Shown here piece after piece: positions 9,001 through 12,000 of a DNA stretch of 14,879 nt. The position numbers are program-made. The stretch comes from a virus (Duplodnaviria > Heunggongvirae > Uroviricota > Caudoviricetes): IMG/VR virus record IMGVR_UViG_2667527789_000019; one strand, given 5' to 3'. Numbering within the stretch: position 1 is the stretch's first letter; each line of letters opens with the position of its first letter.

Positions 9001-12000
9001 GTTACGGCTGACCCTGAATGATTTCGCCCCGTGCAATTGAAGCACCCAGCGGAGTTATTCAGGGTTTTTTATTGCCCGTCCACCAGCACCACATCTGTAG
9101 CATTGATGCGTATACATTCGCCGTCAATTGCACCATTCCGGCCCTCACCGATCCGCAGCGAGAGCATATAGCCAGACGGCGGGAAATATGCCTTGCGAAC
9201 TTCAGGATGCTGTAAATAAGACTGTTGACGATATGGGAATCAGACGGGATCGGCGACATTACGGGTTATGGAAATAACAGCCAGGTAAATTGGTGAATAT
9301 ACGGCAGGCTGCAATCAGAGCCGAACATAGCGGCCTCCGTCACCATTATCAGACAGTAGCGGTAGTCCTTCCATCACAGCAAAATGCTACCCACTTCACA
9401 GCCCCTTGGAAGCCTCTTCGATGGGGTGAAAAATCCCTGAAAAAATGCGCAAAAAACTGCGCAAAAAAGTGCGCAAATCGATCATAAAACCGATCACAAA
9501 ATCGATCACACAGACAAACAGAGCAAAGCCAGATATGACGCGGCTTGCAGGGGGAAAGGCCACCGGAAAAAGTGCGCAAAAAAATGCGCAAAACGAAACG
9601 CAACAGCCGCGCAAAACGAAACCGATACGCGATGATCGAAAAAGCGCGCAAATTTACCGGATTCGGGTAAGCAATTTTGCCTGATTTGGGCAAAATACGG
9701 TGACGCCGTAACAGTGACATTGACACCAAAACAGTGACACACAGGAGGGCCGATGACCGAACGTTCACCAACAGAGATAATTCACGGGATTATTGAAGAG
9801 CAGGAGGAACGCGAGTTAATCCTCATGATTGAAGAGCAGAGAGAACGCCAGCGCAAACAGGAGGCCACGCAGCCGGACAGCGTGAGCGCTGAAAATCAGG
9901 CTGATGTGACGTGATGGTGTCGAACTGAGTAGCTTTAAGCGACTCTGTGACTGGTTTTAAACGAGTCGCAAAAAGAGCCGGAGAAAAACCACGAATCTGG
10001 GGTTTTTTCTAAGCACGCTGTACACGGTGGAACATATGGTGGTCAGGAGACGGCAGGAGCAACGCCAGAACGCGCCCCCGTACCAGTGGCATAAGCCGGA
10101 GCGGTTACGGCGGTAACTTGTTGATTAAAAGGCGGCTCAATTCTGAGCCGGGTAGCTGACGGCGTTAACTGGCTGATATTGTTACAAAGCTCATTTTTGA
10201 GCTTTGGCCTAACCTACTGATATTTTCGGAAACCTCAATTTGAGGAGACCGCAAACGCAAAATTGCGCTGGCTACATTCCTCACTTCTGAGGACTGTTAA
10301 CAAGCTGGCTGAAAGACAGTCACAAGCTACGAAATTTTCGTAGTTTAACTTTCATCCAGTGCATCCCTGAATTACGGGTATGTAACCACAGCTATTACGA
10401 GGTGATTGTTGATGCGTGATATTCAGCAGGTTCTGGAACGCTGGGGAGCGTGGGCGGCAAATAATCGCGAGAATGTGACCTGGTCATCCGTTGCCGCAGG
10501 ATTTAAGGGGATTATTCCGGCAAAGATAACATCACGCTCACAGTGCTGTGACGATGATGCGATGGTGATATGCGGGTGCATAGCCCGTCTTTACCGGAAC
10601 AATCGCGATCTGCATGACTTGCTGGTTGATTATTACGTGTTGGGGGAGACGTTCATGGCGCTGGCACGGAAACATGGGTGCTCTGACACCTGTATAGGTA
10701 AACGCCTTCACAAAGCGGAGGGGGTTGTTGAAGGCATGTTGATGATGCTGGATGTGAAGCTGGAGATGGATCGGTATGTTGAGCGCGATTCAGTGACGGC
10801 ATAACGCGCATAAAAAAACCGCAGTCATGAGGAAACTGCGGTGGAGAAATACGGCTTGCCAATCAATCATGAAAAACGTAATCGCCTGATAATTATGCCA
10901 CGAGACAAAGGACGGTGCACCCTGAATGGTCATAATGACCACTCAGACCATCGAGGCAACCATAACGAACATCGTTACAGTTGGAGCTTTTACCCCGTTG
11001 GGGGAAAAGGTGCATACCTGAATCATCATTATGGTGATCAAGGGCATGTAAAGCCCACCAGCCTGATTAAAGGTTAACCGGAAAAAGCCAGGTATGGAGG
11101 GAGTGACTAGCCACGAACAAGCCGGACACCACCAGCAGAAGGTATTATGATTTTCGTAATACCTTTAGCAAAGCGTGAATCATCATTACCGTAGGGATGG
11201 TCATAATGACCACACCTTCCCCCACCGGAACAAGGAAGGCTGGCTTACGAAAATTTCGTAACCCTCCCCAGCACAATGTATTAAATAATCACTACAGGCC
11301 ATTGATTAAACTTAATTATCGCGAATCGCGAGAATTAGCCCCGCCGGAACAAGGAAAGGGAAATTACGAAAATTTCGTAAAATCCCCCCACATCTCCCAC
11401 GGTTGCCCGTTAAGTGCAAGCGCACAGGCACGACCTCATTAACCAGTTACCAGCGCTCACGCTCAAACATCCACAGCAATGGGGATAAATCGCACTCTGG
11501 CGCAATGTTCACTATCGGGGCGAGCATTCACCGGAAAACGTCATACAGGCTTACAGGCGGCTTAAAATTCGATGGGCGGAGGACCGGATGGGAATCGGGA
11601 GACCTGGACAAAAAGTGCAGGCCTCCATGACACGGTCAGGACAGTTTGTGTTTAACCAGAATATTTAGCGCCTGTATTGGGGCTTCGTGGAGCTCCCGCA
11701 GACATTCAGGGTCAGTAACATGTTCCTGGTATCTTGTTTTCTCAAGTAACAAGCGGTGCATATGCAGCATACGGGCAAGAGCCGCGCACACCTCCTCAAA
11801 TGCGGTATCCCGCTTACCGTCACTGTCAGAGCCACAAAACAGCGGTACAACCTCCACGCCGTCGCTGTGGGCCTTTAGCCAGGCATCAACCACGGTTAAA
11901 TCATCGGTGAAGAACCACGCACTGTTAGCGCTGAATCGCATTTTCCAGGCTTCCGGTACTGGTTGCGGGGAGTATGAATATGCTGGTGGTATCTTGTCGT

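Follow-up and report, generated by a model that had tools for sequence, protein, structure and literature searches.

A phased hexamer array in an Escherichia coli satellite island as a putative pac-site mimic derived from within terS of Stx phages

The window analysed here, the 14,879-nucleotide stretch of DNA deposited as IMG/VR virus record IMGVR_UViG_2667527789_000019, is a satellite island resembling the phage-inducible chromosomal islands (PICIs), an integrative element of Escherichia coli. It contains an A-rich array of phased TGCGCA and GATC-containing hexamers (9424–9655), and the question raised by this locus is what the array is for. The original prediction, made from the window alone, offered three readings: a recognition array for a terminase or a redirecting protein, similar to cosB or pac; a set of iterons or a centromere for a DNA-binding protein of the island; and a Dam/SeqA-sensitive control region for the 53-amino-acid open reading frame (ORF) that follows. 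Comparison with phage genomes shows that the array is a non-coding copy of a repeat stretch inside terS, the gene for the terminase small subunit (TerS), of 933W-like Shiga toxin (Stx) phages. It is probably a mimic of a packaging (pac) site that is recognised by the TerS of a helper phage.

The array consists of two clusters of phased hexamers, at 9446–9510 and 9565–9655, which are arranged around a unique spacer (9511–9564), and all of the elements described below are given on the plus strand. In the left cluster three TGCGCA units start at 9446, 9458 and 9470 (AAAAANTGCGCA, 9446–9477) and are succeeded by three CGATCA units starting at 9479, 9491 and 9503 (9478–9510), again 12 bp apart. The non-repetitive spacer harbours ATGACGCGGCTTGCAGGGGG at 9535–9554. 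The right cluster opens with two TGCGCA units starting at 9573 and 9585 (GGAAAAAGTGCGCAAAAAAATGCGCAAAA, 9565–9593) and continues with two copies of the 14-mer GCGCAAAACGAAAC (9586–9622). These are followed by CGATACGCGATGATCGA (9623–9639), which includes an inverted hexamer TGATCG (9633–9638) and is the point where the segment common to every island ends on the right, and by the terminal degenerate unit AAAAGCGCGCAAATTT (9640–9655). Most units are thus of the TGCGCA type, and both in the window and in its relatives three to four GATC hexamers lie on the left and one on the right. The region 9424–9655 is rich in A (43.5%) and poor in T (10.3%). The phasing is far from what composition would produce: TGCGCA-N6-TGCGCA is matched three times and CGATCA-N6-CGATCA twice, with 0.00 and 0.01 matches expected, respectively, from 200 dinucleotide-preserving shuffles.

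Much of this had been noticed in the original prediction, and our counts bear it out for the seven GCGCAAA copies in a single orientation (out of nine in the window; all seven lie within 9447–9652 on the plus strand, and five of them are part of TGCGCA), for the 14-mer, which a repeat search places at 9586 and 9609, 23 bp apart, and for the four GATC (Dam) sites, three as CGATCA and one as TGATCG. The 12 bp spacing that was ascribed to both clusters holds for the left one and, on the right, only for the first pair (9573/9585), with later units following at 23 and 37 bp. Likewise, the CGATCA units share the 12 bp period and not the strict register, as they start 9 bp after the last TGCGCA. Nor does the array begin at 9446: the periodicity sets in at about 9424 with degenerate units of the GAAAAATCCCTG type, namely the 12 bp A-tract units GGGTGAAAAATCCC TGAAAAAA (9424–9445), which the repeat search finds in register with the TGCGCA units.

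The origin of the array became apparent when viral contigs were scanned for TGCGCA occurring three times at a spacing of 12 bp. The scan returned many coding repeats together with nearly identical A-rich arrays. These viral A-rich arrays all lie inside one gene, the product of which starts with MAK.DW...WC...LNY.TARRYIK and which is followed by genes for the large terminase subunit (TerL) and a P22-like portal. The gene is terS of 933W, VT2-Sakai and more than 200 other Stx-converting phages (tblastn), and it matches PHROG 370, 'terminase small subunit', with an E-value of 5e-125. A collinear alignment of 179 nucleotides (E = 6e-14) joins window positions 9442–9607 to terS of a PhiR12_3-like phage (L043), where the left cluster, the spacer, the right cluster and AAACGAAACGCAACAGC follow one another in this order.

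Each block of the array has a counterpart in these genes. Codons 47–63 of 933W terS comprise four 12 bp GATC units (AAAATCGATCATG, AAATTGATCATA, AAACCGATCATG and AAATCGATCATG) encoding IDHEIDHKTDHEIDH, next to which come a spacer containing AATGACGCGGGTTCC and then AAAAATGTGCAAAAAACTCTGAAAAAAACTGCGCAAATTCGGCAGAAACGAAACGG. The GATC units of the window are identical to 933W terS (L088, 4149–4182) at 31 of 34 nucleotides. In PhiR12_3-type terS the GATC units are replaced by TGCGCA units, while the right-hand block is as in 933W, and the left cluster of the window is homologous to these TGCGCA repeats, which code for SAQKNAQKSAQ (L043, 747–785). The right cluster matches repeats that code for EKCAKNCA, with 25 of 25 nucleotides identical in L043 terS (873–897) and 33 of 38 in 933W terS (4230–4267). 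The spacer sequence AATGACGCGG(C/G)TT is common to all islands and to both phage genes in the collinear alignment. Further to the right, AAACGAAACGCAACAGC is identical to positions 906–922 of L043 terS, where it codes for ETKRNS; in the window it stands in another frame because of a 10-nucleotide deletion. From the segment 9623–9639, ACGAAACCGATACGCG is also found in terS of Klebsiella phage RCIP0034, coding for TKPIRG.

The island has kept only this internal portion of the gene. In six islands the counterpart detected by tblastn covers TerS residues ∼43–115 and includes neither the helix-turn-helix (HTH) nor the C-terminal domain. Stop codons bound the window copy, its frame shifts at the 10-nucleotide deletion, and none of the island ORFs, when scanned for the TerS recognition-helix motif, carries one. 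Judged by the alignments, the GATC units were inherited from phage terS coding sequence. blastn of 9200–9950 against phage and plasmid collections gave no match, the low-complexity filter having masked the array. When the array was translated conceptually and used as a protein query, only spurious ORFs that overlie it in other islands were returned.

In the window, an ATG-initiated 79-amino-acid ORF at 9445–9684 is annotated in RefSeq (WP_001227787), and similar spurious ORFs populate the protein databases, as would be expected if a small basic protein were encoded here. We find a real gene hardly credible. The ORF contains a stop codon in L002 and a frameshift in L003, the lengths and frames of the ORFs over the array differ between islands, and DNA this poor in T gives long ORFs in several frames. 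The original prediction, too, had ascribed the ORFs here to low complexity rather than coding. By this comparison, the annotation from RefSeq and the Prokaryotic Genome Annotation Pipeline appears to be spurious, and a protein-coding gene was rejected.

The position of the repeats within terS acquires a meaning from phage P1. P1 PacA (L094, NC_005856, 90529–91722) shares the HTH of TerS, with ...LNPNTARRYLR as the corresponding segment (hhalign probability 91.7%, E = 8e-7). The mapped P1 pac site occupies codons 61–119 of pacA, directly after the HTH, and consists of 4 + 3 TGATC(A/G) hexamers around cleavage sites at 90804–90813; these hexamers encode a DH-rich linker, similar to the IDH repeats of 933W TerS. 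The same two-cluster layout is seen in the island relatives, 933W, L043 and P1. Thus P1 pac resembles the array in lying directly downstream of a homologous coding region for an N-terminal HTH (for the array, via its phage counterpart), in having two clusters of hexamers ∼12 bp apart around a unique region of roughly 90 bp, which in P1 is the cleavage region, and in its Dam-type TGATC(A/G) hexamers. It differs in that the array lies outside any terminase gene, is made up mostly of TGCGCA units, has 3 + 1 instead of 4 + 3 GATC hexamers and shows no IHF consensus. As the array copies the stretch of terS where P1 has its pac site, the island is most likely packaged by Stx phages via the array. 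The HTH family to which the N-terminus of PacA belongs also includes the TerS proteins of Stx phages and of many enterobacterial phages, a kinship of which no description is known to us.

Other phages also have pac sites within terS, among them SPP1 (pacL–pacC–pacR) and P22/Sf6. In SPP1 the TerS-binding repeats flank the cut on both sides, while P22 pac is a single 22 bp site. The TerS families and sequences of SPP1 and P22/Sf6 are unrelated to those considered here.

An AlphaFold2 model of TerS shows a confident three-helix HTH for residues 1–43. The repeat-encoded linker, residues 49–128, has predicted local distance difference test (pLDDT) values below 50 and is predicted to be disordered; long C-terminal helices follow. 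Protein structure therefore does not explain the regularity of the DNA repeats, and in the model the linker looks free of protein-level constraint. A search of the Protein Data Bank (PDB) with a profile of the N-terminal domain yielded only a marginal match to the HTH of IS21 transposase (E of ∼0.1), and Foldseek, run with the model against the PDB, gave no significant match, its output being dominated by coiled-coil noise. Many database TerS ORFs of this N-domain family (P0001–P0258) are truncated or frameshifted inside the A-rich repeats, which is likely to result from homopolymer sequencing errors or assembly breaks. These truncated ORFs and the RefSeq ORF over the array are annotation errors that the present analysis brings to light.

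The recognition helix of TerS varies together with the repeats. Among TerS relatives clustered at 50% identity, an A-R-R-[YH]-[IL]-K helix is accompanied by AQ(K) tetrad repeats, corresponding to TGCGCAA, in 79 of 79 cases, while an A-K-x-[YH]-I-K helix goes with AN(K/S) repeats in eight of eight, the DNA unit being TGCGAAT in a Yersinia phage. The contrast of 79/0 versus 0/8 corresponds to a Fisher p of 1.7e-11, uncorrected for phylogeny. 933W combines the helix ARTRIK with CGATCAT units and a Klebsiella phage with yet another helix has GTACGCA units. The covariation of helix and hexamer offers a simple system in which to study TerS–DNA specificity.

Relatives of the island occur in ∼119 of 5,426 complete E. 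coli genomes. By name, their hosts are nearly all Shiga-toxin-producing E. coli (STEC): O157:H7, O145, O103, O111 and strains labelled 'STEC'. Eleven relative islands were retrieved and compared. As to the check proposed in the original prediction, conservation and copy number of the units in related islands, the array is present in all sampled islands (∼119 genomes) despite mosaic flanks and different Rep proteins, origins and attachment sites, and its unit numbers vary. No island with the flanks and without the array was seen among them. Islands of the DUF927 type and of the primase type, located at two attachment sites, have it in common, and the conserved module extends from ∼9368 (9453 in L011) to 9639 or 9652, with mosaic sequence on both sides. 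Separate scans of genome contigs for the 53-amino-acid ORF and for the array pattern gave no matches, these contigs being species representatives without the island.

Within the module the relatives have two to three TGCGCA copies on the left, where only the base preceding the hexamer varies, three to four CGATCA units and one to two TGCGCA copies on the right. Three islands, L005, L006 and L010, carry a duplication of the unit GAAAAATCC(C/A)(C/T)G. The terminal unit AAAAG(C/T)GCGCAAA is present in the window, in L002–L004 and in L006–L009; it is absent from L005, L010 and L011, which diverge directly after GATGATCGA. Throughout, the hexamer cores and the 12 bp phase are preserved while the position between the cores varies freely, and among close relatives the sub-blocks of the array look like reshuffled alleles.

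A metagenome contig of 11,437 bp (ERZ1034876 NODE-1165; L103) is a closed circle of a relative island with a Q–attP–int junction: its SSB gene spans the contig ends, which overlap by 10 bp, and the integrase gene lies within ∼530 bp after Q. The contig represents an excised or concatemeric form, in a natural sample, of a relative and not of this exact island, and islands of this kind therefore do excise. Three further metagenome contigs (L097, L098 and L099) end at the island array.

Several observations weigh against a pac-site mimic. No phage TerS was found by protein search that combines TGCGCA- and CGATCA-type units as the island array does, and on the right side there is one GATC hexamer where P1 has three. 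P1 has an ARRY-type helix and yet GATC hexamers, and the helix-to-hexamer rule is therefore not universal; the covariation statistic, moreover, ignores phylogeny. For the co-occurrence with Stx phages we relied on strain names and two examples. In the literature searched we did not find a mapped pac site for 933W-like phages, and in one study a 933W-like phage was classed as 'Mu-like' by PhageTerm (PMC7946995). Finally, the array is 94–95% identical among close relatives, with 12 bp indels in addition, compared with 98–99% for the flanks, and this faster divergence is as compatible with relaxed constraint or unstable repeats as with adaptive tracking of helpers. Purifying selection was considered as an explanation for the conservation and dropped; we make no claim of it because the array varies more than its flanks.

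Faster divergence would fit an inert relic, the last remnant of a terS that the island or an ancestor formerly possessed or took up by recombination with a phage and that is now without function. Homology to a coding sequence with a broken frame, divergence ahead of the flanks with changing copy number and a composite unit make-up unmatched in any phage TerS found all agree with this idea. A neutral remnant should, however, have decayed to differing degrees and often have been lost, while every sampled island retains the same internal segment of ∼230 bp and no other part of terS, across varied flanks, Rep types and attachment sites, and no island has the flanks without it. In addition, the hexamer cores and their 12 bp phase are held while the position between them is free to vary. 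We thus consider a relic unlikely.

The idea of a Dam/SeqA- or otherwise regulator-sensitive control region for the downstream operon, from the 53-amino-acid ORF through Q, takes its appeal from the four GATC sites, of which three follow one another at 12 bp, and from the location of the array upstream of a conserved small ORF. In contrast to what it would require, the O157-type islands L002 and L009 keep the array and have no such ORF, islands of different types have non-homologous spacers separating the array from the ORF, and no σ70-like promoter was detected in or beside the array in a scan for promoters and terminators. The GATC units, furthermore, come from the coding sequence of phage terS. 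This reading of the original prediction is not supported and is very improbable. The terminator scan recorded only weak minus-strand 'terminators' arising from the adjacent TGCGCA palindromes, and Rfam gave no match in the array at E-values up to 1. Candidate rut or boxB-like elements and an RNA that binds Hfq or ProQ were rejected as having no support, no promoter or terminator having been found, and sites for Xis or another recombination directionality factor, or integrase arm sites, were rejected since the array lies 0.9–2.5 kb or more from the island end.

Two clusters of direct repeats around a spacer superficially resemble a PICI origin (PMC6092414), and the array could then be bound by an island protein as iterons or as a centromere, serving as a second origin or as a partition site. 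The window already has a canonical origin elsewhere, at 6340–6640 (unstranded), directly 3' of the DUF927 pri-rep gene, where at least 12 TGGGACAAC/GTTGTCCCA iterons in both orientations surround AT-rich DNA. This is the architecture described for origins of Gram-negative PICIs (PMC6092414). Such iterons change with the Rep type, being GGTAGACAG in EcCICFT073 and TGTTCACC in the O157 island L002, which has a different primase. No such change is seen in the array, which DUF927- and primase-type islands share. We take TGTTCACC to be the same octamer as the type I iteron of phage P4. The island annotation contains no partition genes. The origin or iteron idea was dropped because the origin lies elsewhere, and this second reading of the original prediction is extremely improbable.

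What remains is the terminase reading, of which one half stood. The pac-like character and the analogy with P1 are favoured by the terS homology, the PacA HTH and the position of P1 pac; a cosB-like array or a target of a redirecting protein is not supported, as neither cosN nor an Rpp protein was found. The best matches to lambda cosN (GGGCGGCGACCT) in the window and its relatives have two to three mismatches, which is chance level, tblastn detects no RppA homologue in the window or its relatives, and a sequence search of the PDB with the two uncharacterised ORFs after pri-rep, seeking Rpp, returned nothing.

Satellites without a terminase of their own are known to carry a packaging signal of the helper in their right-hand module (PMC6092414, PMC6739421, PMC10111431). 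The examples that carry cos are EcCICFT073 (cos1/cos2 plus RppA), P4, SaPIbov5 and HE-PICI 11capE, the last with a shared cos region of 258 bp (PMC10111431). EcCICFT073 has the same backbone as the present island (int, alpA, pri-rep, ori, ssb and perC), contains two exact copies of cosN together with RppA and is devoid of the array. Unlike these satellites, the island has no cosN and no Rpp, and we propose a headful mechanism based on pac, a signal originating from within the terS coding sequence of the helper and, as presumed helper, an Stx-type podovirus rather than lambda or phi80. Headful packaging of satellite concatemers by the TerL of the helper, as proposed here, would be shared with Staphylococcus aureus pathogenicity islands (SaPIs) of the pac type; these encode a satellite-specific TerS along with a pac site, whereas the island encodes no TerS and would use that of its helper. 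Compared with the known satellites that carry helper signals, the array differs in being, as proposed, a pac-type signal, in its origin inside terS and in pointing to Stx-converting phages as helpers. Our literature searches turned up neither a satellite with a pac region copied from inside a helper terS nor a satellite of Stx phages.

The same homology and covariation would also be expected if the array were a decoy that titrates helper TerS to the detriment of helper packaging, or that regulates neighbouring genes, rather than a site at which packaging starts, and satellites commonly disturb the packaging of their helpers (PMC6739421). The island, however, contains no other recognisable packaging signal (no lambda cosN, Rpp or terS), and a DNA site in single copy would titrate TerS only weakly without amplification. 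The two roles, interference and packaging, are in any case mutually compatible. A decoy in place of a packaging site seems quite improbable.

The reading of the array as a pac-site mimic is based on the homology, the architecture, the lost coding capacity, the retention across islands, the covariation of helix and repeats and the parallel with P1. The repeat segment of the phage terS is then most likely the packaging initiation site of 933W-like phages and their relatives, and helper TerS would bind the island copy and thereby direct island packaging. 933W packages its terminally redundant DNA by a headful mechanism and acts as a generalized transducer (PMC3752737). In the proposed sequence of events, a resident Stx-type prophage would be induced, and the island would excise and replicate from its own origin at 6340–6640. 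The HTH of the helper TerS would bind the phased hexamer units and TerL would cut in or near the spacer 9511–9564, which is a candidate cleavage region by analogy with P1, where the cuts fall between the hexamer clusters. Island concatemers would subsequently be packaged by headful as multimers in full-size heads. Packaging of EcCICFT073 as multimers in full-size heads by cos helpers has been described (PMC6092414).

The link to Stx phages extends beyond the array. The antiterminator Q of the island (10410–10788) is 91% identical at the nucleotide level to Q of Stx1a/Stx2a phages such as 86, VT2phi_272, PA2 and ArgO145. Strain 06-3462 contains the island array together with phage 06-3462, which has a 933W-type TerS, and strain PA2 contains the array together with phage PA2, which has the matching Q. 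A broader picture can be drawn in which this lineage of PICI-like islands in STEC consists of satellites of Stx phages that are packaged through a composite pac mimic and carry an Stx-type Q, with the pac site of 933W located and a relation established between HTH and hexamer. This picture as a whole is tentative, somewhat less likely to be correct than to fail in one of its parts. Within it, the composite array may answer to more than one TerS specificity, a TGCGCA type and a GATC type, and the island Q could act on the late promoter PR' of resident Stx prophages, which drives stx, and so switch on the late operon of the helper.

If this holds, a readable relation between TerS HTH and pac hexamer would span a large family of TerS proteins, P1 PacA among them. 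The islands would compete with Stx phages for packaging, so that phage yield and the spread of toxin genes in STEC could change, and the Stx-type Q raises the possibility of cross-talk with stx expression. For 933W-like phages, the analysis also predicts a position of the pac site that can be tested.

The remainder of the window is that of a Gram-negative PICI. It contains an integrase gene, an alpA-like regulator and a pri-rep gene followed by an origin with two sets of iterons around AT-rich DNA; its genes have a single direction of transcription, it lacks structural and lysis genes, and its size falls in the range of 10–15 kb. The same set of genes forms the backbone of Gram-negative PICIs such as EcCICFT073 (PMC6092414, PMC11773190). 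The region is 100% identical to E. coli 2015C-3121, where the island is inserted at tRNA-Gly beside E. coli type III secretion system 2 (ETT2). In order, the window encodes the integrase (1–1254), an AlpA-like HTH protein (1798–2001), a Rha/Icd-like protein (2066–3451), the DUF927 primase-helicase Pri-Rep (4182–6320), SSB (7423–7872), ProQ/FinO (∼8031–8336) and PerC (8320–8619), followed by the array at 9424–9655, the 53-amino-acid ORF (9753–9914) and, on the plus strand, the antiterminator Q (10406–10804; Pfam PF06530, PHROG 79).

Between perC and the array, the non-coding region 8690–9050 contains five copies of the imperfect palindrome GGGCAACTGGAGCCC, 62–143 bp apart, of which those at 8701, 8844 and 8971 are exact or nearly exact and those at ∼8909 and ∼9031 degenerate. 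Compared with L002 and L004, the window lacks ∼790 bp near there, including a 128-amino-acid minus-strand gene and PerC-like genes, with the junction at 9140–9150. The product of the 53-amino-acid ORF is very acidic. From island to island its first ∼40 residues hardly change, and its C-terminal part varies or is extended. Neither Pfam nor PHROG contains a match to it, tblastn against phages gave no homologue, and a role in helper interference is pure speculation.

Around the Q gene the perfect palindrome TTACGAAAATTTCGTAA occurs three times (10328–10342, 11245–11261 and 11364–11380), two of the copies being situated within 42 bp direct repeats at 11220 and 11339, and ATGGTCATAATGACCAC occurs twice (10926 and 11197). 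Both sets of repeats look like operators. Towards the end of the window, a second tyrosine-recombinase-like ORF of 532 amino acids (12630–14228) matches Pfam Phage_integrase with an E-value of 1.5e-18. In relatives, RefSeq labels an ORF of similar length (1,611 versus 1,599 bp) at about the same position as 'glycoside hydrolase family 15', which, as judged from length and position, is possibly a misannotation.

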